A DNA stretch of 63,249 nt, filler included, from Craspedostauros australis (lineage: Eukaryota), in the NCBI GenBank assembly GCA_030167865.1. It is 10 parts of 10 records of this genome, joined end to end, with 100 filler letters (N's around TTAATTAATTAA, not from the genome) between each part and the next. Parts side by side here need not be neighbours in the genome. Positions count along the whole stretch, not along the records: positions 31,503 to 45,369 come from JALAGF010004418.1; 9 more parts are not named here. One strand, 5' to 3'. Shown here one piece after another: positions 23,531 to 60,788 of the stretch. Under the pieces are notes generated by a model. The model was not told the origin of the DNA. It was given only the letters and a program-made list of their open reading frames with translations, and did no database searches. The translations under genes were made by a program, and so were the position numbers. The stretch's first letter is position 1. Every line of letters begins with the position of its first letter.

Positions 23531-23747
23531 AAGCTTTCTCATCCTCGTATTGAATCTCGTGAGTGTTGGGAACACCAAGCATGTTTGCAGACCATNNNNN
23601 NNNNNNNNTCGTACAGTGAGTCAGCCACTTGCCCTTCAATAGGGAAGCGTCAACCAGCAACATCGTGGTGCCTTTGATGTCTCCAAATCGCAGGGCTTTC
23701 AAGATGATCGCCATCACCTGTTGCCTCATCATCATTGCCATCCCTGC

Positions 23748-24962: not shown

Positions 24963-25836
24963 TGTTGGCAAGTTCTGTTCACGGTAACCTACGATCGTGG
25001 AAGATGGTGTTGGTTGATAGTCGTTCGTTTGCTATTTCATTAGTTGGCTACTCCGATCCTCTCGGTGTACGCCCGTTCTCTTGTCCGATGCTCTTGGTGG
25101 TTCAATCTGTTTCGTAGATTCCGTCTCCGACTATGAGTCGGTACGCAAGATGCTCTCTCGCTCCTCTCTGTATTCTCTCTCTCTCTCTCTCTTAACATTG
25201 TGTGCTCGTGCTACACGATACTCCGTGTTCGATGCGTGCTCCGCATTCGACACTCCGTTCATTCAGTACTGGCTTCTACTCCATGAGTACTTACCATTTG
25301 AAGTTCACCTTCAGTATCCATGATCTTCATGGGTCATCGGATCTTCGCCTCCTGCTCTGACTTGGAGACAGATGTCAACGTGGTGACATGATGACATCCT
25401 GTCGACGTCAGTAGGTGTCCTTCTGCTCTCCAGATGTCACGTTCCATTGGTGATGCAGGAGNNNNNNNNNNNNNNNNNNNNNNNNNNNNNNNNNNNNNCT
25501 TCTGCTCTCCAGATGTCACGTTCCATTGGTGATGCAGGAGTCTGTCAGATGATATCGTCATCTGAGGTTTAGTTGGGAAGTACCTTGAGCTTCTCTTGGT
25601 ACCATTGATGGATGGACGGACGATATTCTAATTCTCTCAGGAATCGTCGATTGCAAATTTCCTCCAGAAATCTTGCTCATTTTCGTGTGTTCCATTTCCC
25701 CTGGAATTCTGACGAATCACAGCATGCTATTGACACGAATGTAGTTATACCGTCCAAGTGCGTATGAGAGAATAACAGGTGAACGATGCACATATACACG
25801 TACATCTTGACATATACTCACATGTACATCTCGACA
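24963..25836 (-). mobile_element. LTR family G copy (inverted) at which the Copia is truncated
   Basis: Reverse complement of 17123-17917. The flanks do not form a TSD. Confidence 0.85.
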
Positions 25837-28621: not shown

Positions 28622-30366
28622 ATGGCCGACACCTCCCAAAACCAACACATTGTTCACCGCCTTGCTTCGACTGCGTCTGATGTACTGTTGCTCTCGTCTG
28701 CGTACGGGTTGCCCGTGCCATCATGGGCAACGACAGCCATCGCGATGAGCAATGGAAACTCCAGCATCTTGCATCGCTCATCTTTCGTGCACAATGCAAC
28801 AGGCGGAGATGGCAACCACGGTGCAAACAACAATGACAACGATAATGACAGCAGAACCAGCGCAGATGGATTCATGGGCTTCATTCCCTTGTTGGAAAAG
28901 CTCGTCATCTGCTGGAGCATAGTCATGGTGATCCTCTTGACATCCGTGTTGTCCTACGGACTGTTCGATATCGTTGTGATGCCATCCCACGACATCACGA
29001 TGCCACTCTACTTCGATTCCACTGAGATGTCCATCCATCCAACTGAACATCATCTCGTGCAACAATGGTGGCTGGNGCAGCAGCAGAAACAGATGCGAGT
29101 GCGGATGAGGGAGGACGGAAAGCACCAAATGGAGAAAGAGGGGTTACAAGAATGCAAACAATATGAAACAGATATAGCCATCATGACAGCAGCAACAGCA
29201 GCAGCAACAGCGAGAGCAGTCATGAAGCTGGCGTTGAGTCGCAACAGGAGACAATCTCCCACTCATCACCACCACCATCGCATGGGCAAGCTCAAGCCCA
29301 AGCACAACCTCAGATGCCACCGCAGAACCAAATACCCAATCTTTCNGTNGATCAGCGGCGTGCCTTGCAACGATCGCCTTGAGCAACTGCCGATCTTTTC
29401 ACCAAGCACACGCAATGGGAACCATACCTTGACCGCCATCACCCCAAACCACGACCTCGCTCCGCGTTGAAGGCAAACCAACCGTACGCCATCGAAATTG
29501 CGCTGGAACTTCCAGAATCGCTGACCAACCGAGAGTTGGACATCTTCGGTGTGCACGTGACATTGCAATCCGCAAATGGAATGGCCCTGGCAACATCTGT
29601 GCGATCCACGCAACATCCGCACGAAAGTGACTGGATATCGCTGATTCGAAAATGGACACTGCTGGTGCTGCATCTCGTCGGTGCTATCCTAGAAAATCGA
29701 ACCACCGTGATCCCGTCGTGTCATTACGTCATGGAACGAAATCAGCATCCGTTATGGTCTATCACTGTTCGGTTAGTGAGTAGAACTACAAGGCGGCGGC
29801 GAACACAACGCGCGAGCTCTCCAGCAGCGTCGACAGAATGGACACCGTCTCATGATGACGATCTCTACAATGACGATGTGCAAGCCAGCACAGCGCACGT
29901 CTGTATTGGAAGAGAGCTGAAGCCATACCAGTACGTTCTGAAGCACTGGTTCTTCACGCGTGCGATGATTGGCATCAGTGCCATCTTCGTATTCCAATCC
30001 GCCTCCGTAGGCCTGCTGATGTATCTGTGGGAACGCCGACGGCAAGGTCTTGAAGAAAGAGCCAGCGATGCTTCGCTCCAACTGGAACTGGATGAGTCGT
30101 TAGATTTTCACGACGGCAACAATGGTGGGGTCGGGGAACATGATGACACTGATGATGGACCCTGGTCGAGCACCTTGGTGGATGGGGCGCAGGCGCCGCC
30201 ACAGTCGCAGGCGAATGCCGTAGTCAGTGAGGATTCCAACGGCACCAATGGCCAAAACACCGACGGTGATTCGACCAGTCCCGATGTCGACCCCGATATC
30301 CACTCCGATGCTAACGCTGAGACCTCCCCTCGAAGCGAGTCTCCAACAATCATCGTGGATGAATAG
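28622..30366 (+). pseudogene. Seipin (lipid-droplet biogenesis protein) homolog; disrupted or unresolved gene model
   Basis: TM helix plus PLYFD, then YAIEIALELPESLTNRELDIF, TSVRS..HPHES, YVLKHWFF and a second TM helix. The halves are in different frames, with TGA at 29380 and ambiguous bases nearby. Confidence 0.75.
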
Positions 30367-32609
30367 ACCTATTGTTGGATGTTGGATGTTGGATCGTTGG
30401 GAAGACTTCGCTGTGGGCAGCGACGGGAGATGCATGGTTCGAAATTCGCCATCGGAGAACATCACACTTTGTGCTCGCACCATGAGTCGCCCACCCGACC
30501 ATGCTCCGCCGCGTGCAAACTCTACTCTGGTCCACTTGAGCGTGCGCCATCCCATCCTCATGCTAAATCAAGGTGAGAACGCGCGTTTCATCGATGGATC
30601 ACTTTTTGTCGGAATGCCAACGAATCTTTCGCAGTTGGGGCACGGTCAGAGACATGAGGAACATGGAAAGCGTTGCCTGTGGTGCATGAACGGCAGAACA
30701 ACCTCCGCAACTTGGGACAAGAACGGCAATTTCAGTGGCGATGGCTTGATCATCTCCACAACAAGCAAGATCGCCTCGCACTGGTGAAGTGTCATGTGTG
30801 CATACCACATGGTACGATACCGTCGAGATATCGATATCTTTTGGCGCACGCCCCAAAGCAGTCGAAGACGTGCGAGCGTCTGACGACGCGCTTGTACTCC
30901 TGCTATTTCGGTACGTGCGCACGTTCCGCTACAGATAGATATCGCGAAGTTGATGATGCGAGACCATGAATCTGGTGTCCAACCATGCGAAAGCGCGAGC
31001 ATCACCAAAAGATGAAAACGTGGGATCTGTTTTCCCGTCTATCTCTTCTGCTCATGCGTGCAGATGAATGGTTGATGAGTGACGATTGCGTTTGACTTCT
31101 CTATTGCGGTATGTGGATATGCAACGCGATGACTAACATTAGTGATTCCGTTTCCATCTGACCAACAGACCAAGTCTCTGGTCCTCTATTCCATATGTAT
31201 TAGATATGATACATACTAAATCATACTCCTGCATCAAGAATGCTTCTTTTGAGAAATGGGCTTGGTTGATTTGCTTGATTTCGATGGTGCTCGCCTTCTC
31301 CGTTTCTTCGTTGCAGGCGGCAGTCTCTCATCTCTCCTTGCCCGAGCGAGATCCATCTCGCGCTTCTTGCGAAAGCCATGCGCGGCCTTGTCCCGTGCTT
31401 CCNNNNNNNNNNNNNNNNNNNNNNNNNNNNNNNNNNNNNNNNNNNNTTAATTAATTAANNNNNNNNNNNNNNNNNNNNNNNNNNNNNNNNNNNNNNNNNN
31501 NNATCACTGCCACGTTATCATCGACGCAGCGGTGGAAACATTGGCGACCTCACCTTCCTCACCAAGGAAGACCTCAATGGCCTCCATCACAACTTCACTC
31601 CCACCACGGGAGACCCATACACATGCCGATTTATGGCGTTGCATATTTGCAAGATCCTTGCACTCCCGATGTCAGGAATCGAGGGTACAACTTTGTCAAG
31701 ATACCCCTGATTGCAGCACCTCCCAATAATATCTTCACAACTTGAACAATTCAACCTTGTTGATCACACTTGGACTACCTTGTAGCTTGTCTCTCCTCAC
31801 TCCACCTTTTGTGGCTGGCACCATACGCAGTCATGTCCCACAATAGAGTCTATCTATGAACTGTCATGGAAATGAGGGCGAACCTGTAATTTGACCACTA
31901 GGGATGTATCTGCACATGAGTCAAGACTATGTGCAATACAGTCAATAAATTCCAAGCAAGTCGACATGCCTCAACAGACAAGAGACGCTCCAGAGTCACC
32001 CCAATGGGAGAAACGGCGAGAAGGAGAAACGGAGGCGATCCCTGAGTCACCCAAGAGCACGAATGACAATGCGACATTGGACAAACATGATTGCTGAGAC
32101 CGTGGGGGTGGCATAGGAAGAATACTGAGGAATCAAAGATGATGTGGGATCGATCAGGCTGAGACCCAAGCTGAGGTACCCGTGCGGCTACAAGAAATAC
32201 TGCTTGAATATAGAAGAGGCATGGCACTACTGAAATGCACAATGAATCTGAAGGAGAGAGCATGAGAGCAAGTTGATGATGCAGATGAGAGCAACTATGG
32301 ACAAGTGTATGACTATGGTGAACTGCTATGGATTACACTTGCAATCAAATTTGAATTGAAGAGGGTCAAGAAGATTGATCTCCACAGTTCTAAAACGGTA
32401 CAATCTAATAACAGAATAGAGTACTACGATAACCCTGGAGTTCCAACACTTGTAGAGACGGAAACACAAGAGAGCATCTTGTGTGAACTCATAGTCGAGC
32501 GAGAGCTATCCGCAGAGATACTCAACCACCCACGTGATGAAATAGCAAACAGAAACAGCATTTACACCATCGTCTACCAGTAGGGAATCACGGTGCGTGG
32601 AATTCGCAA

Positions 32610-33247
32610 ACCTACACAGATTTTGTTCAGCTCTGCCAACAAATAGTCAGGGATAGGCTTGAACAATGAGGTCTTCTTTGCAGCCCAACCCGGTGTTACA
32701 ACAGGAGGAAGATCTATGCCAGCAGTCGTATCCTTCCACGTTGTGTCATGATCAGCAGTTTCCATGAGGTTGGTGCAAATGGCTGTTTTGAATACATTTG
32801 CTTCACTCTCTTCCAGACTATATACCTCTTTGTTGCCTGTTTTGTATCCACTGGTACTGGTTGGCATGATGACTCGTGTTCTTCTTTCACTGTCGCTCCA
32901 ATTTAGTTCACGACAAAGCACTCCCAATCCTCTTCCTCCACCAATTTGGCATCGATGGCATTTGAGGCTTCATTCACTATTGCCATCCCTTCCATTGCCG
33001 ATGCCTTCACCCATTCTCTTGTCATCATCGCCATCCCACCCATCATCATCTTTTCTCTTGCCAACTCCACCTTCATTGCCATCACCATTGCCGTTCATGA
33101 CAGAATCATTCAGGTTGCTTTCGCCATCATCATCTTTGTTGCCATCACCCCCATCGCCCTCGACGACGAAATCATTGTGGGGACCACCACCACTTTCGTT
33201 CCCATGGCAGCGACCATCGCCACCGGCAACGCCAACGCCATCCTGGG
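32610..33247 (-). pseudogene. Second degraded copy of the unknown multicopy ORF, host of the Copia insertion (continues from 39144)
   Basis: Nucleotide similarity to 23160-23530. An (ATC/GCC)-rich tract continues on both sides of the Copia. Confidence 0.6.
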
Positions 33248-33414
33248 TGTCAAACAGTACAAGTAACTACGGTAGACGTATTTGCCCGTTGTTGCGTGCC
33301 CTGGTCGGAGCTCTTGTTGATTATTTGTGAGTGCTGTCCGAAGACAGCCCCCGACCAGTATTTGACTAGTACGATTAGTAAAGAAGTAAGAAGTAAGGAA
33401 TTCTGTGAGAATTG

Positions 33415-36400
33415 TCACGCCCCTTGATCTCGAGGTAGACCTGCATAGAACAGAGTGGTGACAAATGATGTGAGTTCTGGCTTTGCCAGCACCTTTGTGA
33501 GCATATCTGCAAAGTTCCGCTTCGATGGGACATATACTGGAACAAGGATTCCAGCTCCCACCGCTTCGCGGACTCTGTGGAATGAGATTGCCACATGCTT
33601 CTTTTGGAGCAAGCTGTCTGCAATGGTCGTGTTTGATATCACTGCATTGTTGTCGCCGAACGTGATCGTTGGCGCTTTGACTGTGACTCCCAGAGATCGG
33701 AGTGCGTATCGGAGTGCAATGATTTNCTCGGTNGCCGAGCGCATTGCATTGAATTCTGCTCCGTATGTTGATGTTGCGACTGATGTCTGGCGTTTGCTGG
33801 AGAAGTGCACTGGGGTGCGCCCCAGGAAGATGATGATGCCGGTGTTCGATCTCCGCGTGACCAGATCATGTGCATGGTTTGCATCGACGAATGCGCACAT
33901 CTGGATCTCAGGGTATATCGCTGCTGGCGCCTGATCGTCAATGTCCTCGGCCGCTTCGGGGTATTCTTCCTTCATCTGTGCAACCATCTCCGGGTTGGGT
34001 GATTCTGGATTGAAGTTCTCGAATGCGATGGGCTTTGAGTCGATCATGGTTCTGAGCGTTGATTTGTTCTTGAGGTATCCCCATATCTTAAGTGCTCGTG
34101 TGAGATGCCCTTTCCGTGGTGTCGACGTGAAACGTGAGAGAGAAGAGGTTGCAAATGCGACGTCGAAACGTCCGAGCTGTACAACCCAGTTCAGCATGCC
34201 AATGAGCTGCTGGAACTGTTGTTGCTCGTCAGGTGTTAGTAGTGGTGTATCATCCATTTCCGGATGATCCTTGCTCTTCATGGGTACATGTTGGTCATGC
34301 AGTTCCCCATGGAGCCGTTCGATCTTGTCCAGAGCATTGGAAATGTATTTGTCGCATCCGACGCTCCATTTTCCTTTTGCGTTCCTGGAATAATCGTTGC
34401 CAAGATAGTACTTCGGTGGTCCAATGTCTTTGACTGTGTAGACTTGTTGTATCGCCTTCATGTACTGATCTGGGTCTTTGGCGACTATCTTGAAGTCGTC
34501 CACATGGGTGCAGATGTAGTCGTAGCCAGAGTCGTCTCTGCACTGGATCCATACATCTTGATCATGCCGAGATGGCGTGAATCCCATCGATGAGAGAGTG
34601 TTGGCGAAGTGTGCATGGAATCGTTGAGCGCTTGACCGAAGACCGTATAGTGCTTTCTTGAGCACGATGACTTGTCCTTCTTTGTCGTCGAATGCCTTTC
34701 CTGCTGTCGCGTAGATCTTCTCATTGGTGTACGCATTGACGAATGCGTTGCCGACGTCGCCACATAGCTGTTGCAGGTTGTTTGCATCTGCTATTGCATC
34801 AAGGATGCGGACGCTTGTCGACTTGACGGTTGAAGAGTAGACTCGGATGTTGTCCGCCAGCTCGATGAGATGCCCGCCTGCTACCAAGCGCCCCTTACGT
34901 CGCAGATTTTGCTTGACCGCGAATATGAGTCGGAGTTTCGTGCTCTGATAGTCTGCTGGTGGTTGGTATGTCGATGGGTGGAATGTGAAGCAGTCGAGTT
35001 CGATCAATGCGTCGATCTCTTTCTTCGCTGCATCTCTCCATTGGTGATCCCCATTTGCTTCATCCAGTTGCAATGCATGTTTCATGTTGCGTGGGACCTC
35101 GACACCGTATTGATATACAGTGGCGAAGTAGTCTCGCTTCGGCTTCTTCTTGCCTGGACGGATTCGTCTGATGATGATGATGTTGTCGTTCTCATCCATT
35201 GTGAAGGCTCGAGTCTGCTCGATTCTTCGGATTCTGCGCCTGATGGCTCGCAGAGCATGTTTCGCCCACTTGAGTAGGACTTGTGATTGCCGATTGTGGC
35301 GACCGTTGCGTCGTGGTTCGTTGTCGATGATGTACCGTGCTACCATTTCGGGATGGTCAGCTCGGATCACGTCGTATCGGAACCATTGCGTTTCAGTGTT
35401 GGACCATTGCACATTGAAGTGTAGATGTCCGTCTCTGAATGCGTGGCTGAGGATGGATTGGATTGCCAAGTCGTCAGATTTCTCGTTTTCGACCTGATTT
35501 CGGAACAGCTCGTCATGCTCTCTCTCGATGAGAGAGGACTCACGCCCCTGAGAGCGGTGCTCCGGAGGATCTGGCATCGCCGTGACTTCGGAGTCATCGG
35601 TCGCCTCAGAGATGTTACCCGCGGATGCGTCGCTGTCGTCATCTGAGATGACGCCGTGTGCATTATGTTCCGGCATGTCGCCGTCGTTGGGAATTATGTC
35701 TGGTTGACCGAACCACCGGTCAGCCGTGCCTGCTGGCGTGTTATTCTCGGATACGCCCCTGACCTCCTGCGTCTCCGGCTCCGGCGGACCCGCCGCCGCC
35801 CCTGACTGCACAGCAATCGCGTCGATGGCCTCGCGGACCTGTCGAGCGAGCTCCGCCGGCAATGTCTTGGTTCTGGCGCGTTCGCCGGATTCGCCGCGCG
35901 TAGTGGTGTGGATGATATCGAGTCGAGCGATGCGGTTGACCTCCGCGTCTGTGATGCGTGGAGGAATGGCGTCTTCGACGACACGCGGCTTGACAATGTT
36001 GCGCACAAGCGCGGTGCCCTTCGTGACGTCATCGCCTCGTGGAGACCATATGGTGTAGGTGAATGGATTGCCGTGATTCCATGCGATGCCAAGGAAGTAT
36101 CCTGGCTTGAATGGATGGTTGGGAAATTTGGTCATGGGTTCGAAGAACCATACGGGTTGGAAGAACGTGAAACGGAACATCGAGATGTCGGGAGTGTTGC
36201 CGCGAAGAATCTCAATCGGAGTGCGCCATTGGAGGCTTGCCTTCGCCGTGTAATTCCATGCGTCAATAGCGTGTTGCACAGCATAGCACCAGAATGAGAG
36301 TGGCGCCGAGGCCGCCCATAGTAGCTGGTATGCATGTCGCTTGACATCGCCAATTGCCCGTTCTGCGTGGTTCTGGTTCTGATTCATGGGCACAGTGAAT

Positions 36401-37407
36401 TGGTGCTTGATCAGATAGCGGGATGTGACCGCTTTCCATGCCTTGCCCGATTGCACCTGCGAATTGTCTGAGACGAGTAGATCCGGAGCGCCGACGCGGA
36501 TGATGAAATCCGTGAGCGCCCCTGGCGCCATGGCCTCGCGGCTCAATGGCTTCGCCCAGATGAATTTCGATTGGTTGTGCGAGAATAGCTGGAAGCACTT
36601 GTAGTGCCGGATGGACTGGACGGTGGAGAAGAACGTGTCCGTGTCAACTCTTCCGTCGATTCTGTTGGGTTGCAGCACTCCTGCTCGCTGAGCTCGATAC
36701 TGCCGTGGGATAAGCCTTGACTCTGCCTCGATCGGAGTATCCGCCAGTTGAGTGGATGCCGCCATTGTCTTCTCCACCACGTGTGGTGGAAGGTGTCGGA
36801 AGATTCGCGTGAAATCGACCCGACCCGCATTGCGTCGTAGACGCTGGTGTCTGTCGCATATGATGATATGCTGTGCCGTCGCCATCTCGTGGGCTGTTGG
36901 CTTTCTGATGGGAATTCGGAGCGTGTTGCCTTCATGGTTCTCCAGTGGTATGCTGATTTCATCCGATGAGACCCGCTGCTGTCCCTGGTGTTCGATTAGG
37001 CGATCATAGACGTTCAGTCCGGACGCGCGCATATGATGTGTGTTAAACAGTGATTCCGTCTGCTGTGGATGCTTGTCGAGAGCCACGTAGTTCGCTTTGA
37101 TGAGGATCACGCCGCCTGATGGGGGCTCGTATGCTGCCACCGCGTCGACCATCTGGAATGTCTTGATTGGTGAGTCCATTGTCGCCCCTCGGGCACGAAA
37201 CTCTTGTTGGTGTGTGTGGGTCACCTCCCAGCCCGACGCATGAACGATGTCTCCGTCCGCCCCTGAGTCTAGGATGATAAAGCCTTGGCTATTCGTTACT
37301 CTTGCCCTTCGGATGCAGTGCTCCACTGTCGGGTGGGTTGTGCACGGACGGGACTCTTGTGGTACCTCCAGACGTGCACGTCCGGGCATTCCCGCTGCGG
37401 TCGTCAC
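33415..37407 (-). CDS. pol: Copia pol polyprotein (protease, integrase, chromo-like domain, RT, RNase H)
   Basis: ILDSGAD; DTDTFF, LVSDN and QNQNHAER; RKGRLVAGG, KALYGL and THVDD; FVDANHA, GDN and NFADMLTK. The stop codon is the first three bases of the 3' LTR. Confidence 0.95.
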   Translation of the reverse strand: MTTAAGMPGRARLEVPQESRPCTTHPTVEHCIRRARVTNSQGFIILDSGADGDIVHASGWEVTHTHQQEFRARGATMDSPIKTFQMVDAVAAYEPPSGGVILIKANYVALDKHPQQTESLFNTHHMRASGLNVYDRLIEHQGQQRVSSDEISIPLENHEGNTLRIPIRKPTAHEMATAQHIIICDRHQRLRRNAGRVDFTRIFRHLPPHVVEKTMAASTQLADTPIEAESRLIPRQYRAQRAGVLQPNRIDGRVDTDTFFSTVQSIRHYKCFQLFSHNQSKFIWAKPLSREAMAPGALTDFIIRVGAPDLLVSDNSQVQSGKAWKAVTSRYLIKHQFTVPMNQNQNHAERAIGDVKRHAYQLLWAASAPLSFWCYAVQHAIDAWNYTAKASLQWRTPIEILRGNTPDISMFRFTFFQPVWFFEPMTKFPNHPFKPGYFLGIAWNHGNPFTYTIWSPRGDDVTKGTALVRNIVKPRVVEDAIPPRITDAEVNRIARLDIIHTTTRGESGERARTKTLPAELARQVREAIDAIAVQSGAAAGPPEPETQEVRGVSENNTPAGTADRWFGQPDIIPNDGDMPEHNAHGVISDDDSDASAGNISEATDDSEVTAMPDPPEHRSQGRESSLIEREHDELFRNQVENEKSDDLAIQSILSHAFRDGHLHFNVQWSNTETQWFRYDVIRADHPEMVARYIIDNEPRRNGRHNRQSQVLLKWAKHALRAIRRRIRRIEQTRAFTMDENDNIIIIRRIRPGKKKPKRDYFATVYQYGVEVPRNMKHALQLDEANGDHQWRDAAKKEIDALIELDCFTFHPSTYQPPADYQSTKLRLIFAVKQNLRRKGRLVAGGHLIELADNIRVYSSTVKSTSVRILDAIADANNLQQLCGDVGNAFVNAYTNEKIYATAGKAFDDKEGQVIVLKKALYGLRSSAQRFHAHFANTLSSMGFTPSRHDQDVWIQCRDDSGYDYICTHVDDFKIVAKDPDQYMKAIQQVYTVKDIGPPKYYLGNDYSRNAKGKWSVGCDKYISNALDKIERLHGELHDQHVPMKSKDHPEMDDTPLLTPDEQQQFQQLIGMLNWVVQLGRFDVAFATSSLSRFTSTPRKGHLTRALKIWGYLKNKSTLRTMIDSKPIAFENFNPESPNPEMVAQMKEEYPEAAEDIDDQAPAAIYPEIQMCAFVDANHAHDLVTRRSNTGIIIFLGRTPVHFSSKRQTSVATSTYGAEFNAMRSXTEXIIALRYALRSLGVTVKAPTITFGDNNAVISNTTIADSLLQKKHVAISFHRVREAVGAGILVPVYVPSKRNFADMLTKVLAKPELTSFVTTLFYAGLPRDQGA

Positions 37408-37483: not shown

Positions 37484-38881
37484 TCAAGAACCGGCGTTCC
37501 ATGGTCCTTGGGTGCTGGGTCGTCCGGTCTTGTGGTCCCCTGTGCGAGGCCGCTTGGGCCCTCGCTGGGTCATTGGCAACTCGAGGTTGCGCGCGTACTC
37601 TGTCGGTTTGTTGCGCTTGAGGGTTTCCTCATCGATTGGTTTCCCGGTAGTGCGGAAGTGACGAGACGCTTCGACGAGGAGCACTTGAGTGCTCACTGGC
37701 ATGCGACGGAAGACGGAGTCCGGCAACCGAAACGATGCGGCGCCCTTGCAATCCCACTTGGAAGATTCGCGTGGCCTCTTGCAGTCGTCCTTGGTGTCCT
37801 TCTGCTGGTAGCGACGGGTGCGCTTGGGAGAGTAGTGTCCTTCCGACTTCGTGAGGAGCGCGTCATGTTGCATGAACGCCTCGCGGATTGCGTTGAAGGA
37901 TTGTTCCGTGTTACGGAATCTGGACATCTCGCTTGTGAAGCGATCGTCCGTGATGCTGCAAAAGAACTTCGCGATCTTTTGCTGGTCGGTCATCTGCTTT
38001 CCGTTTTGCTCCAATACGCGGATGCATTTGAAGAAAGCATTGACGAATACTGGGAAGGGCTCTGATCCATCGTAACGGAGCTCGGCGATCTTCTGTTCTT
38101 CCTCGACGATGGCCTCAGCTTTGTTGTCGACGGATTCGTACGTGCGTACGAGTGCCTGGTATGCATCATGGCCGTTGGGGTCATATGCTTCCACGATGAA
38201 TGCTGCGCACCCCTTCTCTGTCTTGGTGTGCAGGACAGTGTAGAGTTGCGCGTCGATCTCCTCGCTGAAGTGTGATGGCTTGTCGACATCGAGGTACGCG
38301 GCATATCTGGATGTGACCAGCTGTCACTTGAATGCGATCTTCCAGTCATACCAGTCGCAACTATTCCCGGTGAATTCAGGTGCTTCTGGCATGCTGATCT
38401 TGTCGAACTTCCATCCTGACGGAGTTCTTGGGGTTCGTGGTGATCTGGCGGTGCGTGTCACGCGGCTCGGTGAGCTGACCGTGATCTCGCGACCTGTTGT
38501 GCCAGTGGCATCCGCTGCTGCGGCTGCCTCTCTGATCGCCATCTCCGATCGGATTTGAGCGGCTGCGTTCGCGACTGGCGTGCTAACTTCTGGTGGCACG
38601 TAGCTGTTCGCTTCGTTGAACAAGTCGATTGCTGCCCAATCAGTTCGCGCAGTGATGGTGTTGGACCTTGCGTACGCGAAGATGCGGAGGATGTTGGTGA
38701 TGTTGATTGATGACAGCGTTGGCGAGAGCGCCAAAGCCGCCACGATGGTGGCATCTGGGTTGCGGATGACACGATCGATTCTCCCGAGTTTCTCACTGAG
38801 GAACGCCATCTCTTCGTCATCGAGCTGAACCAGCTCTTGGATGATCTTGTTGAAGGTGTTGATGTTGGTTGGTCGGTCCAT
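37484..38881 (-). CDS. gag: Copia gag, one reading frame interrupted by an in-frame TGA at 38324-38326
   Basis: PEFTGNSCDWYDWK, NGHDAYQAL, LRYDG and KIAKFF. The 185-aa and 236-aa ORFs share a frame, with open codons between them. Confidence 0.85.
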
Positions 38882-38953
38882 GGTGATAGCTCGTAAGACG
38901 GTAAAAGATGGTGAAAGGTTGGTGTGGTGTTGGGTGTTGCTCAGTGTTGGTAA

Positions 38954-38968
38954 GCACGACTCTTAATC
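38954..38968 (-). promoter_or_regulatory. Primer-binding site complementary to the anticodon arm of tRNA-Lys(CUU)
   Basis: The plus strand reads GCACGA-CTCTTAA-TC directly abutting the 5' LTR. There is no TGG. Confidence 0.75.
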
Positions 38969-39245
38969 TGTCAAACAGTACAAGTAACTACGGTAGACGT
39001 ATTGGCCCGTTGTTGCGTGCCCTGGTCGGAGCTCTTGTTGATTATTTGTGAGTGCTGTCCGAAGACAGCCCCCGACCAGTATTTGACTAGTACGATTAGT
39101 AAAGAAGTAAGAAGTAAGGAATTCTGTGAGAATTGTCACTGGGCGTCATCACGGCTATATATGCCAACACCGCCACAATCAACACCATCGCTGAAGCCAG
39201 CATCATTGTGACCATCAAATGCATCACGGACGTTGCCATGTCCTT

Positions 39246-39405
39246 TGTCACACTGCACAAGGAACTAATGAAGACGTATTGGCCTGTTGTTGCATGCCCT
39301 GGTCGAAGCTCTTGTGTTTTATTGTGAGTCGTCCGAGGACGATCTCTGACCAGTATTTTGGATGAATACGACAAGTAAAACGTAAGAAGGACAGTAAAGC
39401 TGTTA
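39246..39405 (-). mobile_element. Solo LTR related to the Copia, with TSD TCCTT
   Basis: Homologous to the 170-bp LTR. TCCTT at 39241-39245 and 39406-39410. Confidence 0.9.
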
Positions 39406-40419
39406 TCCTTCATGAAATAGGAGTAGTACCTTCATGCGCGGTCTGGGGTTGCCGTCGTCAAAATGGAATGGTGGATGTTGATCTTCATGAGCAAGTTGTC
39501 AAGCATGGCCGATGGTTGAATTGGATTGAGACCTCTGATTATTTATTGTCGATGGCATGGATGATACCAATGAAGGGTTGTTGACACAACCGGAGATACA
39601 TGTGAAACGGTCAGAACAGGGTTTTCACGCGAACGCCCGTGTCACCCAACGGTAGTAGCCAATGAATGATACAGCGGGTCCATACGACCCGATAACCCTC
39701 ATAGTCTGAATCTTTATGGCTTTGCCATTCCTGAAATGGGTTTCGTGTGTGTGATACCATGGACAAATGGAATGACTACGAGGATCACGTCGCCTGTGGC
39801 GAACAAGGCAATTCGCATGCACAAAAAGCTGCAGGAGAAGGGAGACAACCAAGCGCAGAAGCCTGAGAATAGCGCAATAAAATGCCCATCATGAATAAAT
39901 CTAGATGATGACGTCGCGGATGCAAGAGATGCTGGCGAGGTATGTATCGCTAAACCTTAACCGTAGTTAACCGAAAGGACACCATTAAACATCGTAAGTC
40001 ACGAACAACCAAGATCCATTTCCGAATGATGAGGTGAAAAAATACGAGGAAATTCACTAACCAGGTCGTTTTGGAGGCCAAAGTCCACTAACCAGGTCGT
40101 TTTGGTGCCCGACACGATGATTGGATGACTGAAATGGCTGGCGTGTCTCTACGACAACATCGAAAATATTAATTTAGCCGTGAAGTAAACACATCAACCG
40201 TGCCCCTGTCTAGTAGTGTAGAGTACTCCAGTTTTTGATGGTGTTGATGAATCCTGTTCTGCGGAAGACGAGGAGAGGGTTAAACCAACTATATTGCATA
40301 CTGNNNNNNNNNNNNNNNNNNNNNNNNNNNNNNNNNNNNNNNNNNNNNNNNNNNNNNNNNNNNNNNNNNNNNNNNNNNNNNNNNNNNNNNNNNNNNNGGT
40401 CACTGTGTGTACTATGTTG

Positions 40420-41597
40420 GTCATATGTGCATACAAAATGTCAAGCATACTTGATTACAACAACTCCACCACTCCGAGAACACCTCAGCGAGTACAGTCA
40501 CGAAGTATGAGGTCTCCACTCCATCTGGAAGGCATCCATATCTGAGAATCTAGATATCATGTAGTGTGGGTGACAGTTCTATGAGCTACGCACCATAGTG
40601 TACAGTAGATTGTCAAAATGTGCATATAAAACGTCAATCGCAATGAAATCCAACCCGGCGCCCACTTCCAACGCACTCCAAAGGATCTGTTCACGAAGTA
40701 TGAGGTCTTAGATCCGTCTGGAAGGTAGTCAAATCGATGGATCTGGACATCGAGGTGCTGTGTGTGACAGTACTGTGAGCTACGCACCATAATGTACAGT
40801 AGATTGTCAAAATTTGCATATAAAATGTCAATCGCAATGAAATCCAACCCGGCGTGAACTTACAACACACCCCAAAGCGTCTGTTCACGAAGTATGAGGT
40901 CTCCAGTCCGTCTGGAAGGCATCCATATCTGAGAATCTAAATTTCGAGTGGTGCTGTGGGTGACAGTACTGTGAGCTACGCATCAAACAGTACAGTAGAT
41001 TGAGAATTAGTGCCTATAAACGTCAATCACAAGGAAATCCAACCTGGCGCGCACTTACAACACACCCCAAAGCGTCTGGTCACGAAGTATGAGGTCTCCA
41101 GCCCATCTGGAAGGTAGTCAAATCTGAGAATCTAAATTTCGAGTGGTGTTGTGCGTGACAGTACTGCGAGCTACGCACCATAGTGTACAGTAGATTGCCC
41201 ATATGTGCATAGGAAACGTCAATCACAATCAAATACAACCCGTCGAGCACTTACAACACACTCCAAAGGATCTGTTCACGAAGTATGAGGTCCTAGATCC
41301 ATCTGGAAGGTATCCATATCTGGATGTGGAGATTTTGTGTGGTGTTGTGGGTGGCAGTACAACGAGGTACGCACCATACTGTACAGTAGATTGTCAAAAT
41401 GTGGATAGAAAATGTCAATCACAATGAAATCCAACCTGACGCACACTTACAACACACCCCAAAGGATCTGGTCACGAAGTATGAGATCTCCAGTCCATCT
41501 GGAAGGCATCCATATCTGGATGTGGAGATTTCGAGTGGTACTGTGGGTGACAGTACTGCGAGCTACGCACCAAACTGCACAGTAGATTGTCAAAACG
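40420..41597 (+). repeat. ~195-bp tandem satellite, about 6 units; resumes at 42154-42295, with an inverted unit at ~42330-42510
   Basis: GAAGTATGAG recurs near 40502, 40696, 40889, 41084, 41280 and 41477. Confidence 0.92.
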
Positions 41598-42153
41598 TAA
41601 TAGAGCTAAACTAGTAACCACCTTAGCGAGAGAGACTACGAATCATCCGACTCGTCAGCATTCCAGTAGATCGAACGGACACTTCGCCGAACCCCACGTT
41701 TGGAGACAGATCCATAACCTTGAAGCGGATCTTCGGAATTCGTGTCAGGGAACCATTGGGGTTCCGATAATCAAGTTTCTGACACCCACCATCGCCAAAA
41801 TGCCGACGCACGGAACCGAAGCCACAACAACGAGCATCACCGCCCATTGTCTCTCACAGAACCCAGACGACGGATCTCGACCCACGGTACTTGGGCTACA
41901 CAACCCACACGCATTGTCATACAGGACACAACCCACACGCATTGTCATACAGGACATCACAGGAGATTCCCCTCGAAGAGAAGAACCATAGCACTAACCT
42001 CATAATCCGCACATTTCTTCACCATCTACCAGTATTCTAAATTGACTACTTGTGGAACAGAAGACTCTCGTCCGGATCGCTTGCCAGTCAAGCCTCTGCC
42101 TACAGCTAAAGAACAGCCAACAAGACAACAGCCATTACGTTTGGGCTCTATTA
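41598..42153. mobile_element. 556-bp insertion in the satellite (solo-LTR-like, TAATAGAGC...GCTCTATTA)
   Basis: Short terminal inverted repeat and TSD AAACG (or AAAACGT if each end is moved in by 1 bp). The satellite resumes in register after it. Confidence 0.8.
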
Positions 42154-43663
42154 AAACGTGTGTATAAAATGTCAATTGCAATCGAATCCAACCCGGCGCG
42201 CACTTACAACACACCCCAAAGGATCTTGTCACGAAGAATGAGGTCCTAGATCCATCTGGAAGGTGTTCAAATCGATGGATCTAGATTTCAAGTGGAACAT
42301 TGCGTCTTGTGAGGTAGATGGAGCACTGGACTACCACCCACAGTACCACTCGAAATCTAGATTCTCGGATTTGACTACCTTCCAGACGGATCTAGGACCT
42401 CATTCTTCATGACAAGATCCTTTGGGGTGTGTTGGAAGTGGGCACCAAGTTGGATTTGATTGTGATTGACATTTTGTATGCACATATGACCAACTCATTA
42501 CACACAGTGACCGAATGACAGCACATGAACTGACTAAATGNNNNNNNNNNNNNNNNNNNNNNNNNNNNNNNNNNNNNNNNNNNNNNNNNNNNNNNNNNNN
42601 NNNNNNNNNNNNNNNNNNNNNNTAGCTGGTTTGACCCTCTGCTCAACAGGATTCATCGACAACATCATAAACTAGACTACTTTCCACTGTTCTGCAGTGA
42701 AATGTTTGTGTTGGCTTCGTGGCTAAATTATTATTTTCGCAGTTGTCACAGGGACGCGCCGGCCACATTTCCGGCCATTGTGATTGGCCAATACCAAAAC
42801 GACCTGGTTAGTGGACTTTGGCCTCCAAAACGACCTGGTTAGTGAATTTCCTCGAAAAAATACCACAGCGTCGTGCGTCAGAGATAAAGGTCTATAACTT
42901 TTGAAGAAAAGGTCGGATGAAGACCATTTTTATATGTACAAGATCGTACGGTGGTATGGATTATGTTATTGTATATCATTTTACATTTTACATTTTACGA
43001 CAATCTGAGTCACGACTAGGCGCGACTGCGGCATCGTTCGCTGACATTGGCCTTAAATGTCCAGAAATAGTGACTCAGTGACAATTCTCCAAAGAGGAAG
43101 ATGTGTCGACTAACGAACACCGCGGAAAATGTGTCGACTAACGAACACCGCGGAAAATGTGAAGCGAACATGCCTGCGAGGTCTGCACAGAGAGTTCACT
43201 TGTAGATCTCATTGGGATCTTCACGAAACCTTCAATTTCTGTTGAGCCAGCGAAGTCCCACCAACCTCTCCGTTGGCCGCTCGACCTTTGCTGTTCGACG
43301 CCTGCTGGCCGCAATTGGAGGCGGCAAAGTTGGTGATTTTTGTCGAAGAGGCACTTTCGTCGGAACAACTGCTCGCCGACGTTCGTTGCTCTTGTGGCGA
43401 GCAGCAAGAAACAAACAGAGAAGTTTGGCGATGCCTCCGCACACCGACACACAGGGCAAACAAGGGCAACAAACACACAAAGCAGCCGCTGTGGAGCAGA
43501 GTAGTCGTATGCACGAGCTTTGATACACACGGATAACGACAACTGGATCCATCTCTTCCTTGCACCCTGCATCCCCTGAATGCTCCTGTTCTCATAATTC
43601 GGCACAACAAAGCAACACAGACACAGACACGTATTCGCACCACACCAACACGCACCAACAACC

Positions 43664-45340
43664 ATGCCAATCATCAAGAAAGACATCCTCGCTCTCGTCG
43701 TGGCTCAGAGCATCATCTGCAATGGCGTCGACGCGGTGCTGAACACCAACAAGAAGTCAGCCGCAGATGGCAAAATCGACGTCAATGTCGACGCCAATGC
43801 CAACGCCGCCAAGGCGAAGCTCATGGAGTTGACAGCCAACGACAAGAGGGAAGATGCCAGCATGCCAAACTCGCAATCGCATTCTCACCTGCAATCGCAC
43901 TTGCTCTCTCACCTGCACTCTCACGATGGAAAGGTCGAGACCACAACAGACAAGATCGCAGACAGCATCCGCCGTCCCCGTCATTCCATCTCCACCAACA
44001 TCAAGGACAAGTACGCCGATCTCGGTCGCCTTCAAGCCCAAGATGCGTCCAGCGATGAGGATGAGCATGCATCGCACGAGCACAGCTCTCTGTCTGTTGG
44101 AATGGAGACAGACGAGACTCACGACGCCAACAGTCGTCAGCTCAAGTCCTCGAAATCCGCCAAATTGGCGAAGTCCTCCAAGTCCTCGAAATCGGCGAAG
44201 TCCTCGAAATCGACCAAGCCCCCCGAGGTACTCGAGCCGTGCTTCACTGGAACAGCCGAAGCTGTCACAGCCAAGTGCGCGGCCAAGGATGCCAGCTGTT
44301 GCGAAGCGTCGGTCAACGCCACATACCCCGCATGCTCTTGGAGCAGTGAGAGCTCTGTCACCGTCTGCCCTGACTCCTGCAACGGCGAGCAAGCTTGCTT
44401 CTTCAATCCCAACATCACGACGACCATCCAGATTGCCTCCTACTCTTGCAACAGCGACAGAGCCTGCCAGTACACCGCCGTGTCCGTGCCCTCCCGTGCT
44501 TGCAACGGCGAGGCCGCTTGCAAGGAGAACTCTGGCACTGTCGCCGATGACGCTTGCAATGGTATTGAAGCATGCATGTCCAACAAGGGAGCCATCGGCA
44601 AGGGTTCTTGCTTCGGAGACAGGGCTTGCTCTTCTAACAATGGCGACGTTGGTAGTGGCTCATGTATCGATATGGGGGCGTGTGGCAGCAACTCCGGAAA
44701 TGTCAATGACGGCTCCTGTATTGGCCAGGAAGCCTGTGGGCTAAAGTCCGGCGATGTGGACGAAGGATCGTGCTTGGGCTTTTACGCATGCCTCTACACC
44801 TACGGAACCGTCGCATCGAACGCATGCATTGGTAAAAACTCTTGTTTTTTGAATCGTTATGACATTGGCCAAGGCTCCTGTCATGCCGAGTATGCTTGCG
44901 AGGAAAACTACGACGAGATCGGCAACTACTCTTGCATTGGAAGAGCAGCCTGCCAAGAGAACTCTGGGCAAGTCGCATCGTACGCGTGCAACGGTACCTA
45001 CGCTTGTGTTTCGAATTCAAATTACATTGGCCAAGGCTCCTGTCAAGGCATGGACGCTTGCGCATTCAACGAAGGTGGCGTTGGTGCGGGGTCATGCCAA
45101 GGACAACGAGCTTGCCGCTCCAACTACGGTAACATCGAAGCGGGGTCATGCCAAGGACAACGAGCTTGCTCCCGCAACTACGGCGAGATCGGGATGGATT
45201 CGTGCAAAATGTACGAAGCGTGCTCCCGCAACGAAGGCGATGTTGGCGATGGAGCTTGCCTCGGTATCATGGCATGCTATTCCAACGTTGATCCGGTGGC
45301 TGACGGAGGCTGCATCGGCAATTCTTCCTGTTCCGCGTAG
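43664..45340 (+). CDS. Secreted protein with RQL motif, silaffin-like KxxK cluster and a long Cys/Gly/Asn repeat domain
   Basis: Signal-peptide-like N-terminus; RQL-KSSKSAKLAKSSKSSKSAKSSKSTK; about 17 repeats of ~18 aa with consensus (I/V)GxGSCxGxxACxxNxG. Confidence 0.9.
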   Translation: MPIIKKDILALVVAQSIICNGVDAVLNTNKKSAADGKIDVNVDANANAAKAKLMELTANDKREDASMPNSQSHSHLQSHLLSHLHSHDGKVETTTDKIADSIRRPRHSISTNIKDKYADLGRLQAQDASSDEDEHASHEHSSLSVGMETDETHDANSRQLKSSKSAKLAKSSKSSKSAKSSKSTKPPEVLEPCFTGTAEAVTAKCAAKDASCCEASVNATYPACSWSSESSVTVCPDSCNGEQACFFNPNITTTIQIASYSCNSDRACQYTAVSVPSRACNGEAACKENSGTVADDACNGIEACMSNKGAIGKGSCFGDRACSSNNGDVGSGSCIDMGACGSNSGNVNDGSCIGQEACGLKSGDVDEGSCLGFYACLYTYGTVASNACIGKNSCFLNRYDIGQGSCHAEYACEENYDEIGNYSCIGRAACQENSGQVASYACNGTYACVSNSNYIGQGSCQGMDACAFNEGGVGAGSCQGQRACRSNYGNIEAGSCQGQRACSRNYGEIGMDSCKMYEACSRNEGDVGDGACLGIMACYSNVDPVADGGCIGNSSCSA

Positions 45341-45658
45341 ATGAGAAGTCATCACACAGAGTAGATCGTNNNNNNNNNNNNNNNNNNNNNNNNNNNNNNN
45401 NNNNNNNNNNNNNTTAATTAATTAANNNNNNNNNNNNNNNNNNNNNNNNNNNNNNNNNNNNNNNNNNNNCATTGACTTCGGATAGTGTTTGAGTCAGTGG
45501 TGATTCATGAATGAGTGTGGGAGAAGGAGGGAAAAGAGTGATTGTTCCGTATTTGTTGGTGGGAGGTTTCGCGCCAAAATTTCGCGCCAAAATAATTTTA
45601 AGGTGCGACAAGGAACACACTGAGTGAAAAGTAGTCCGTTCTTTAGATGAACTTCAAC

Positions 45659-47070
45659 TGTTGAGATTCAATAAGGTACAGGCTATTACCGGACACGGTA
45701 TCCACCTCCGACGGGAGAAATTCTTGTTTTGGCGCGAAATCTTCCGACTTGATCGACCACCACATCTTTTCCCGCCTTTCTTTCTCTCCTCCTTTCACGA
45801 ATCCATCATGACTCAAACATGACCGACCTGACTCACATTTCACCTTGGAAACTATATGCTCCTCAGATCCTTTCACTACAACACACTATCAACATCTAGA
45901 TCGAAATTAGGTACTCATCTCCCATGACTGAAACGTGATTCACTATTTTTGATTCGACTCGATTTGAGAGTATAGTCGAGTGAGTCTTGATTACACGATT
46001 GANATTCNGTCACTACNGTCATCGAACNTGACGTAGGCACTGACATCATCGTATGACGTCAGAGGATCGGTCATTGTGATCCTCGGAATCGAGATTATAT
46101 CTTAGTCATGGTATGCTGACCTGTCTAGCAAAGCCAAGTGCATCATCGAGCACGTGGCAACAACATTTAGGATCCAGAACAACATCGTCAGAGGTGATGC
46201 ATGCACCTCGTCGACGTAGACGGATCAATCCATATATGATCAAACAGAGATCAAGATTAGGCAAGACCAGGAGAGATGAAGAAAGACCCAAAGGCAAGAA
46301 TAACACGGAGTATCGTGTAGATCAACATGCCATCTTGGGCAATGTTTTAGGAAAGACTGCGAGATACAACACGAGGTAATCGAGCAGCACGTTAGCAACC
46401 GTGCAATAGGCACCATCTTTACGAATGATGAGATCATGTTCTCATAATCCATACTCAATCATCAATTGACACACCAATAACTTAGCAAACAACTATCACC
46501 AAACATCTCCAACTTCACCTATTGGATTGATCACCCAGGCGGCGTAGTAAGTGCAGTGTTTGGTGCTCCCCTCTTGTCCTGTGTGTAATTGCTGATTATC
46601 ACACACCTCGATTCCCTCCACGCTAATGACTACTGCACTATTGCTGTAGTCTTGACGCGTGTATCCAACCTGCTTCAACTCGAGCAATGGAATCCGAGAG
46701 TGAGCTCGAGCCACAGCCATTGCTTCATGACCATCACTATTGAGTGTCATGATCTACACTGCAGTGTGTCTACGTGTGTGGAGAGCAAAGAGCTGCAATA
46801 CTCGCCTACCCTCAAGCACCGAACCAAGTAAATCAGTGCAGGGTCCCACCAAGCTGTGTGGCATCATTTCTTCACCCTACTAACACCACAAAGCTAACTC
46901 ATAATAAACAGACAAGGATTAGCTACAAAGCACTCTTCTACTCATCGTTACAGTAACAACTCTTCAACCAGTACACCTCTCTTGAACTGCATCACATGGC
47001 TATCTCGAAGCCGGCAGATTCACGAGGCATCCTCCACCAATTCGTGTTGACTAAGCCCGAATCGTAACTT
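45659..47070 (+). mobile_element. LTR family AB copy interrupted by a family C insertion
   Basis: Left part 45659-45886 and right part 46602-47070 are colinear with 49587-50271. Confidence 0.85.
45887..46601 (-). mobile_element. Solo LTR family C (715 bp; TGATA...TGATA on the minus strand) with TSD CACAC
   Basis: CACAC at 45882-45886 and 46602-46606. Partial copies in the opposite orientation at 48814-48895 and 60789-61243. Confidence 0.85.
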
Positions 47071-47832: not shown

Positions 47833-49586
47833 ATCCTACCTTCATCACCTGATCAACTCACAATGCAGAATATTCAAAATAACAAATAGCACAACTCAAG
47901 ATCAGCACAACAACACTAGTCTACTCATTGTCACCTTCTGCTACTTCCTAGATGGTCATCCCTTGCTAACTGCATCATCAGCTTCACTGAAACTGGCAGT
48001 CAGCTTGGCCTTCTCTTCCGGATCGTGTCACAACAGTACACAAAAATCCAACTAATGCCAAGTATGGCACATCTGAGTATGAGAGGGAGGGATACTGTTG
48101 TGTTGGAGTCTATTTGTTGTTGGGGATTGTTTGTTGGCATAGCTTGGGTTCTTGGCGTGGCATGCTTCTTCTTCCATTCTCGATCCCACTGCAGCATGAG
48201 CTACATACTTGCTCTGCGGACGAAGTTGAGTTGGAAGGAAGGGAGGGAGGAGGCAGTGTCAATTGGCAGTGTTGTCAATGAGCTTCTGAATGGGTTGTGT
48301 TGAGAGTTGAGCATGGATTGCCACACACAAGAAACCAACGCTCCTCCTCGTTGCCAACAATGCGAGTAGACCACGTATCAACATTCTTCATTGTTGGCAT
48401 TATCGTCCGTATTTTTGAGAGATGGCTGCTGTTTGGACAGAAATCAACAAGAAGAGACAAGAATCATGCGTTGATTCGCACACGCAAGAAGCAAAAAGAG
48501 GCAGATCTGAACGGTAGAATCGATAATTTTGGTTCAGATTGGGAAAAAATGCGAACACTCATGTTGGTACCATGAGGAAACAAACAGTTTGATGAAACGG
48601 TGTGGGAGACAGGAAAGGAAGAAATCGAATCGTGACGTCACATGGGCATTGGAAGGACTCTAATCCTCACGAAAGTGGCTGTCTCCATTGCGTCCAGACA
48701 AGTTTCAATAGCGGGGCTCCCCCTGGAATTCAGACAGCCCGGCGTGTCCCAGTACCCAAGTTCTGGGGCCACTCGAACCCCTCCAATCCCACTCTTTTGC
48801 ACGAATACAATTGTGATAATCAGCAATTACACACAGGACAAGAGGGGAGCACCAAACACTGCACTTACGACGCCGCCTGGGTGATCAATCCAATANNNNN
48901 NNNNNNNNNNNNNNNNNNNNNNNNNNNNNNNNNNNNNNNTTAATTAATTAANNNNNNNNNNNNNNNNNNNNNNNNNNNNNNNNNNNNNNNNNNNNACTGA
49001 TGGCTCTGCAGGTCTCGGGAAAGTCGCTGCGTTTGATCTCACGGATGTACCTGTCCAACATGTGCTGAATCTCCGTTTCAGACAACGCATCGTACGTTTC
49101 TGTGCGTGCGCGCGGCTGCTGATGACTTGAATCCAGACCGCACCATGGGCCATGACATGTCTTGCCATGACTGATGGTTCTACTGTTGGCGCTGCGATTT
49201 CCCATGTCCCAAGCCCATCTTTACTCCAGAACAATTGGTGTGATATCTTCCTTTCTGATGTTTCTGAGCGATGTGGCACGTTGGAGATCGCTGTTCGTCG
49301 TCGCTTGCCATTGATCATCTGTATCAGCGTCATCATCATCGTCTCTTGCAATGGTGGCCTTCGTTGATTCTGGTTGGCGTACCATATTTTGCGCAGCCGC
49401 CACTTGCTTGATTGATTACTTCATTGCTTCATTTCTTTGTTGCTTGACAGACAATGTCTCAGTGTTGGCTGATACCTCCATCAATGCAAACATAGTCAAG
49501 CCATTTCATCTCTCTTGCTCTCTCTCTCTCTTTGTGTTGATGTTGTTTGATGGATCATGGTGCGAAATCGAAGATTCGTTGGTTTG

Positions 49587-50271
49587 AGTTGAGATTCAAT
49601 GAGGGACAGACTATTACCGAACACGGTATCAACCCGATGGGAGAAATTCCTGTTTTGGCGCGAAATCTTCCGACTTGATCGACCACCAAATCTTTTCTCC
49701 TCCTTTCTCTCCTCCATTCACGAATCCATCATGACTAAAACCTGACCGACCTGACTCACACCCCACCTGGGAACTATATGCTCTTCAGATCCTCCTTACT
49801 ACAACATACCTCGATTCCTTCATGCTGATGACCACCACACTACCACCGTAGTCTCAACATGTATATCCAACCTGCTTCAACTCAAGCAATGGAATCCGAG
49901 GGTCAGCTTCAGCCACAGCCACTGCTTCATGACCGTCATCACTGATTGTCATGACCTACACTGCAGTGTAACTACATGTGCGGAGAGCAAAGTACTGTAT
50001 TGATTGTCTACTCTGTTGCACTGAATCAAGTGCATCAGTGTGGGGTCTCGCCAAGTTGTGTGGCATCGTTTCTTCACCCTACTAACACCAATAAGCTAAC
50101 TCATAATAACAGACAAGGATTAGCTACAAAGCACTCTACTACTCATCGTTGCAAGTTATAACTCTTCAACCAGCACACCTCTCTTGAACTGCATCACACG
50201 GCTATCCCGAAGCCGGCAGATTCACGAGGCATTCTCCACCGATTCGCGACGCCTACGCCCGAATCCTAACT
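49587..50271 (+). mobile_element. Solo LTR family AB (AGTTG...TAACT) with TSD GTTTG
   Basis: GTTTG at 49582-49586 and 50272-50276. Confidence 0.88.
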
Positions 50272-60688: not shown

Positions 60689-60788
60689 NNNNNNNNNNNN
60701 NNNNNNNNNNNNNNNNNNNNNNNNNNNNNNNNTTAATTAATTAANNNNNNNNNNNNNNNNNNNNNNNNNNNNNNNNNNNNNNNNNNNN

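Follow-up and report, generated by a model that had tools for sequence, protein, structure and literature searches.

A Ty1/copia retrotransposon of the diatom Craspedostauros australis with a predicted primer-binding site for the anticodon arm of tRNA-Lys(CUU)

Introduction

How does a Ty1/copia retrotransposon start reverse transcription when the sequence behind its 5' LTR offers no site for the 3' end of a tRNA? This question is raised by a locus of Craspedostauros australis, which we studied within a stretch of 63,249 nucleotides from assembly GCA_030167865.1 (hereafter the window). An initial annotation of this DNA had proposed that the element is primed by a 5' half-molecule of tRNA-Lys(CUU), in the manner of Drosophila copia and Ty5, whose initiator tRNA-Met is cut at position 39/40. 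Here we describe the element and its putative primer-binding site (PBS), the tRNA genes that match this site, and its relatives, and we weigh the priming modes by which the layout of the LTR junction might be explained.

Results

A recent Ty1/copia insertion in diatom DNA

The window is diatom DNA, as an ORF at 7098-8291 (plus strand) matches the silicon transporter family (E=1e-115). Its contigs are joined by nine 100-bp linkers of identical sequence (44 N, TTAATTAATTAA, 44 N) at 8244-8343, 12700-12799, 27271-27370, 31403-31502, 45370-45469, 48896-48995, 52815-52914, 60689-60788 and 62085-62184, one of which cuts the silicon transporter ORF; because these joins are artificial, neighbourhood across a linker is no evidence of linkage. 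Further host-type ORFs encode an ankyrin-repeat protein (3740-5830, minus strand), an LRR protein of 1042 aa (19197-22325, plus strand), a seipin-like protein (29581-30366, plus strand) and a DUF7640 protein with four repeats (43664-45340, plus strand). Dispersed repeats of 84-96% identity, found at 15399-16082, 45660-47069, 49587-50271 and 61244-61420 as well as in inverted orientation at 17117-17917 versus 24963-25842, characterize the region as transposon-rich. In addition, tandem repeats of roughly 195 bp occupy 40400-41600 and 42150-42500 with 5-7 copies that are 64-86% alike, accompanied by inverted copies about 1 kb on and by flanking N runs (40304-40397 and 42541-42622), and an array of 20-bp units (AAATAGCCGTCATTCGAYTC-like, about 13 copies) is located at 12969-13228.

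The element under study is a Ty1/copia LTR retrotransposon of 5.9 kb, which lies entirely within the contig piece 31503-45369 and has all of its features on the minus strand. It is delimited by a direct repeat of 171 nt (33248-33418 and 38969-39139, 99% identity), from which we derived a 5' LTR at 38969-39138 and a 3' LTR at 33248-33417, both 170 bp long with TG..CA ends and distinguished from each other by 1 mismatch at LTR position 135. The 5-bp target-site duplication CTGGG flanks the insertion, read directly, in two identical copies at 33243-33247 and 39139-39143. Between the LTRs, the PBS is followed by an untranslated, CA-rich leader (38882-38953) that ends at the gag ATG, and then by the gag reading frame (37484-38881), which is interrupted by an in-frame TGA at 38324-38326, leaving two ORFs of the same frame (38324-38881 and 37484-38194), and for which a Pfam search returned no match. 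The pol ORF of 1330 aa (33415-37407) is in another frame than gag and does not overlap with it; it comprises a protease with the motif D47-S-G, an integrase with D257/D314/E349, a reverse transcriptase at residues 817-1030 and an RNase H region, and contains two single N at 33726 and 33733. Immediately upstream of the 3' LTR, a short polypurine-rich tract (AAGGGGCG on the element strand) is found at 33418-33425.

The assignment to Ty1/copia is carried by pol. Its reverse transcriptase belongs to the RVT_2 family (PF07727, E=1.2e-18, 68 bits versus a cutoff of 31.6), and in an alignment of 13 sequences, namely the window pol and 12 relatives, the integrase triad D257, D314 and E349 with its D,D35E spacing is invariant and the protease residue D47 nearly so. 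As the triad is located N-terminal to the reverse transcriptase, the gene order is that of copia (PR-IN-RT-RH). The Pfam integrase family rve was undetected in the pol of the window copy; some of the relatives are annotated with it. Overall, 128 relatives of pol were found at E<=1e-30 among metagenome proteins and, in one case, as an MMETSP transcript, with a top identity of 58%. All 120 relatives listed out of the 128 carry PF07727 and a few additionally PF00665, and many of them consist of one ORF of about 1750-1810 aa.

Intact gag-pol coding capacity is absent from the window copy, owing to 1 TGA in gag and the frame break between gag and pol. The copy is therefore defective and cannot itself demonstrate activity, which leaves its Ty1/copia membership unaffected; it is a recent insertion that is already slightly damaged.

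No TGG, but a match to a tRNA anticodon arm at the LTR junction

With the element on the minus strand, position 38968 is the first base past the 5' LTR, and the predicted PBS of 15 nt (38954-38968, minus strand) abuts the LTR without any spacer. The element-strand RNA after the 5' LTR reads GATTAAGAGTCGTGC and then continues through the CA-rich leader to the gag ATG. Re-reading of the plus strand at 38939-38968 reproduced exactly the 30 bases quoted in the initial annotation, and its statement that no canonical PBS with TGG stands behind the 5' LTR holds for all 87 nt separating the LTR from the gag ATG, the leader included, so that a classical site for a tRNA 3' end is missing. The plus strand of the PBS consists of G26, the 5' anticodon stem CACGA, the loop CTCTTAA and the TC of the 3' stem. 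It thereby equals positions 26-40 of tRNA-Lys(CUU), expected from the PBS to read GCACGACTCTTAATC, and bears out the earlier description of an anticodon-stem strand, a CTT loop and two further bases running up to the LTR. Judged from sequence, the PBS complements the tRNA-Lys(CUU) anticodon arm as far as the second base of the 3' stem strand.

For a pure chance resemblance to tRNA-Lys, nothing speaks beyond the general abundance of short matches. The 15-mer occurs a single time in the 63-kb window even with 2 mismatches allowed, at 0.13 matches expected window-wide, which makes a match of 15 out of 15 nt at one fixed position very unlikely to be accidental, and we regard this explanation as negligible. 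Self-priming of the Tf1 type would also dispense with a tRNA 3' end, as the transcript then supplies its own primer, its 5' end folding back on the site and being cleaved. Passages of PMC6317226 describe self-priming for certain LTR elements, among them copia lineages of plants. Since nowhere in the LTR do 6 or more consecutive nt complement the first 30 nt past it, this mode is disfavoured and appears very improbable here. Our preferred reading, which we hold with good confidence, is that this diatom Ty1/copia element probably carries a minus-strand PBS for an internal part of the cytoplasmic tRNA-Lys(CUU), positions 26-40, rather than for the tRNA 3' end.

tRNA-Lys(CTT) genes with the matching arm

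Metagenome contigs were scanned for the 15-mer with G or T at each of the next three positions, a pattern that admits the tRNA continuation (GTG) as well as the LTR end (TGT), which resulted in at least 124 matches at no fewer than 120 loci. Among the 124 matches listed, 100 proved to be tRNA-Lys(CTT)-like when the D arm, the 3' stem and the T arm were tested by pattern; in these, the 15-mer occupies positions 26-40 and the arm is made up of G26, the stem CACGA, the loop CTCTTAA and the 3' stem TCGTG. ARAGORN likewise calls tRNA-Lys(ctt) at places of the 15-mer in the metagenomes. CCA is encoded in none of these 100 listed matches and TTTT follows within 20 nt downstream in 66 of them, which together gives them the look of eukaryotic nuclear tRNA genes. 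The 97 full-length copies among the matches listed represent 43 distinct sequences, with variable acceptor and T arms and with hardly any variation from position 8 to 48.

Two of these contigs can be placed by their neighbouring genes, one of them tentatively. Contig L116 carries a tRNA-Lys(CTT) with the exact 15-mer beside an ORF for DNA polymerase alpha subunit B. Diatoms make up all the named relatives of this ORF (Pseudo-nitzschia australis, P. multistriata, P. multiseries, a Bacillariaceae MAG, Nitzschia inconspicua and Fistulifera solaris), and by this neighbouring gene L116 is identified as a diatom contig. Contig L118 is probably a diatom contig as well and serves as a lead, its neighbour gene being nearest to protein clusters in which Bacillariophyta is the commonest phylum; the neighbour gene on L106 gave no useful taxon.

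Within the 63-kb window, neither ARAGORN nor Rfam detected a tRNA gene. As the region of positions 26-40 is invariant across many lineages, C. australis itself very probably has a tRNA-Lys(CUU) that matches the 15-mer. The arm predicted in the initial annotation, CACGA-CTCTTAA-TCGTG, thus exists in tRNA-Lys(CTT) genes including the one on the diatom contig L116, the match coming from metagenome contigs. In viral contigs, a scan with a 14-mer yielded 86 loci, 4 of which are tRNA-Lys(ctt) according to ARAGORN and none of which is a retroelement. Moreover, tRNA-Lys(CTT) genes with the same arm were observed in dense tRNA arrays (L025/L125, L033/L143, L095, L108, L112 and others) on contigs that are virus-like or unassigned, one of them labelled as a giant-virus bin.

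Relatives that keep or have lost the site

Two different metagenome contigs, L123 and L201, which are near-identical to each other, have the 15-mer together with 13 nt of the LTR end in common with the window element (28 nt, 93%), as well as a GT-rich leader motif, and their flanks have diverged from it. Their layout is like that of the window element, with a 424-aa ORF starting 36 nt past the 15-mer. The ORF of L123 had no Pfam match above noise and resembled neither of the two gag pieces of the window element, and a search for a longer homologue of it found none, an absence that counts as weak evidence. With respect to conservation among siblings, the 15-mer is kept at the LTR end in L123 and L201, which represent one family from a sample that is biased, because the search itself demanded the 15-mer. 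Four other loci (L140, L141, L142 and L147) were considered as siblings and rejected: with 5 and 1 listed matches, their classes TGT and TGG are no commoner than the control classes GGG, GGT and TTT (3, 3 and 2 listed metagenome matches) and were for this reason not counted, and the sequence of L147 continues like a tRNA T arm.

A further relative resides in the window itself. Sibling B (23737-24958), with 76% DNA and 75% protein identity, is 5'-truncated, cut off at 24958 by another repeat, and has lost the 5' LTR and the primer site. Outside the 3' LTR, its DNA is 81% identical to that of the main element (23157-23523 versus 32613-32972). In addition, a solo LTR of a related family was found at 39246-39405, which is about 78% identical to the LTRs of the element, ends in TG..TA and is flanked by its own 5-bp duplication, TCCTT (39241-39245 and 39406-39410), 102 bp from the target site of the element. 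A GCCAT-containing motif precedes all three LTRs, namely those of the main element, of sibling B and of the solo copy; together with the shared DNA outside the LTRs, this could reflect an insertion-site preference or an old duplicated locus.

Scanning contigs of genome assemblies with an alignment of 13 pol relatives revealed 7 loci (L227-L233), all in assemblies labelled bacterial, at which neither LTR pairs nor 5' ends were present and the 8-nt PBS core was found in 0 of 7. These are copia pol fragments, 32-49% identical to the window element, from bins labelled Sphingobacteriaceae, Prolixibacteraceae, Bacteroidota or 'uncultured bacterium', and they are most likely eukaryotic (algal) contamination of bacterial bins. 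In viral contigs, a protein scan with pol gave 3 pattern matches and no relatives, and a scan for the PBS plus TGT gave 20 loci, none of them similar to pol by tblastn.

A D-arm-like stretch next to the site and the extent of the primer

Beside the PBS, a D-arm-like stretch is located at 38939-38952 (minus strand), which may provide additional pairing with tRNA positions 10-22 (p about 0.001 for the local alignment). Aligned with positions 10-21 of the L116 tRNA-Lys, it shows 12 matches and one 2-nt gap, an alignment score that 0.12% of shuffled versions of these 30 nt and 0.08% of 30-mers drawn at random from the window also reach, in statistics computed after the initial annotation had singled out the stretch. 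For tRNA positions 1-40 against the leader, RNAduplex predicted a duplex of -41.8 kcal/mol, compared with -23.8 kcal/mol for the 15-bp PBS alone, and this energy was attained by 1 out of 1000 shuffled extensions. The predicted duplex has 28 bp in two blocks (15 + 13), separated by bulges of 3 nt on the tRNA side and 2 nt on the element side. In L123, the one convincing relative, the stretch is not conserved and the duplex amounts to -27.1 kcal/mol. The D-arm-like stretch described in the initial annotation stands as a similarity that beats chance (about 1 in 1000), but it is absent from L123; by its sequence it is a real similarity of uncertain meaning, which could be an extra primer contact or a decayed copy of a primer that was read through.

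The latter possibility leads to the question of whether the whole tRNA-like 15-mer might be a non-priming relic, left by primer read-through or template switching, with the element being primed otherwise. The defective state of the window copy, a D-arm-like stretch of such an origin and the single sibling family that could be shown would all be compatible with a relic; on the other hand, the match stops exactly at the LTR junction, the required place of a primer 3' end, the leader contains neither TGG nor a self-complementary site, the same layout has been published for other copia clades, and L123 and L201 keep the 15-mer despite their diverged flanks. We consider a relic quite improbable and retain the view that the 15-mer is probably the PBS.

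Which part of the tRNA-Lys would serve as primer can be read in two further ways. The primer might be a shorter internal fragment with its 3' end at position 40 instead of a 40-nt 5' half, for example of the roughly 19-nt 'D loop/anticodon' class of Phaeodactylum. Pairing with the PBS requires just 15 nt, and 9 cases of about 19-nt fragments extending from D loop to anticodon are reported for this diatom, besides 30-35-nt 5' fragments (PMC4247016); section 10 of that article, on tRNA fragments, leaves tRNA-Lys unnamed, and the colinear D-arm complementarity, which extends to position 10, is more easily reconciled with a fragment of 31 nt or longer than with a 19-nt one, so we judge the shorter primer unlikely. 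Conversely, both blocks could form one bipartite contact of 28 bp with a true 5' half of tRNA-Lys(CUU), to which the anticodon arm would contribute 15 bp and the unfolded D arm 13 bp. Only a cleaved tRNA would easily form such a contact, and tRNA cleavage induced by stress would then control the retrotransposition of this copia family. This scenario is conceivable, though in our estimation rather unlikely.

Discussion

In the priming mechanism that we propose for the C. australis element, a cut in the 3' strand of the anticodon stem would separate position 40 of the host tRNA-Lys(CUU) from position 41, and the resulting 5' fragment would anneal through its last 15 nt. The window copy may gain another 13 bp from the D arm, with small bulges in between, and the reverse transcriptase would then extend from C40 into U5. 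The half-tRNA geometry with a Lys tRNA that had been put forward at the outset holds in so far as the PBS corresponds to the anticodon arm of tRNA-Lys(CUU); that a 3'-truncated tRNA-Lys acts as the primer is what we infer from this correspondence. In eukaryotic tRNAs, G26 is commonly dimethylated and in this form blocks reverse transcriptase, which would explain why the complementarity stops at position 26. The copied part of the primer would then have its inner end near position 26, in parallel to m1A58, which sets the 18-nt primer site of retroviruses.

The class of mechanism is already known. For Drosophila copia and Ty5, the cut position of 39/40 named in the initial annotation is general background, and the use of a cut tRNA-iMet is documented. 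According to passages of PMC5371799 and PMC10275265, Drosophila copia employs the 5' half of tRNA-iMet and Ty5 an internally cut tRNA-iMet, the cut in the latter being made by host RNase P as stated in the former review (PMC5371799). These elements resemble the diatom element in their membership of the copia superfamily and in a primer 3' end generated by a cut in the anticodon arm, as presumed for the diatom element, and they differ from it in the primer tRNA, which is the initiator tRNA-Met instead of tRNA-Lys(CUU).

A tRNA-Lys precedent has been published in fungi. The PBS of the FunCo1 clade of fungal Copia elements, given as ATTAAGAGTCT in the text of Donnart et al. 2017 (PMC5445492), is described there as the complement of an internal tRNA-Lys region, and ten of its bases, ATTAAGAGTC, lie inside the PBS of the diatom element, so that the same tRNA and the same anticodon-loop region are concerned in both. 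The two differ in their hosts, a diatom here and Pezizomycotina for FunCo1, in the site, which has 15 nt and starts at tRNA position 40 in the diatom element and at position 39, one base less 3', in FunCo1 as printed, and in the stem part, which matches a CACGA stem here and reads ...AGA there. The supplements of PMC5445492 contain no PBS sequences for FunCo1.

Other lineages use internal sites for other tRNAs. In plants, half-tRNA primers of Met are described for Osser, Bryco and Gymco-II and of Ile for Bianca (Neumann et al. 2019, PMC6317226); in that source, half-molecule tRNA sites are confined to Ty1/copia and characteristic of each lineage, and the passages concerned report other tRNAs than in the diatom element and no Lys half. 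Elements of Candida albicans have internal sites for tRNA-Arg(UCU) or tRNA-iMet (PMC4139406, in part), and Puccinia Copia elements together with their Helenus dependants have anticodon-loop sites for Tyr, Ile, Asp and iMet (PMC10886601, in part), showing that anticodon-loop priming has switched its tRNA many times within Copia. Both differ from the diatom element in tRNA and host.

With regard to the D-arm-like stretch, Ty1 and Ty3 provide the relevant comparison, because the RNA of these elements contacts the primer tRNA at a second place, through a separate stretch that base-pairs elsewhere on the tRNA (PMC5371799, in part). The D-arm match of the window copy similarly adds 13 bp in silico. 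However, the primer of Ty1 and Ty3 is an intact tRNA-iMet with experimentally tested contacts, whereas the contact in the diatom element is computational, comes from a single copy and is absent from L123. The colinear D-arm complementarity is a modestly interesting extra. As a whole, the finding reveals no new mechanism.

For diatoms, the copia-like CoDi elements (Maumus et al. 2009, PMC2806351) share with our element the type of host and the Copia superfamily. The main text of that paper contains the word 'tRNA' 0 times, its sole 'PBS' is a buffer, and no primer site is described in it. Furthermore, a full-text literature search, judged on titles and the beginnings of abstracts, found no description of a diatom LTR primer site among the papers listed. 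The proposal is less new than was hoped at the outset, since anticodon-loop priming and an internal tRNA-Lys site have both been published before.

In conclusion, the element adds diatoms and tRNA-Lys(CUU) to the copia lineages that would start reverse transcription from a cut tRNA. For genome annotation this implies that LTR-finding tools that consider tRNA 3' ends alone will list elements of this kind as having 'no PBS'. From an evolutionary point of view, the finding bears on how frequently primer tRNAs are switched among copia elements. With respect to small RNAs, 5' tRNA-Lys fragments could prime such elements or compete with the primer, and the bipartite contact, if true, would link the production of tRNA halves with the activation by stress that is known for diatom retrotransposons.
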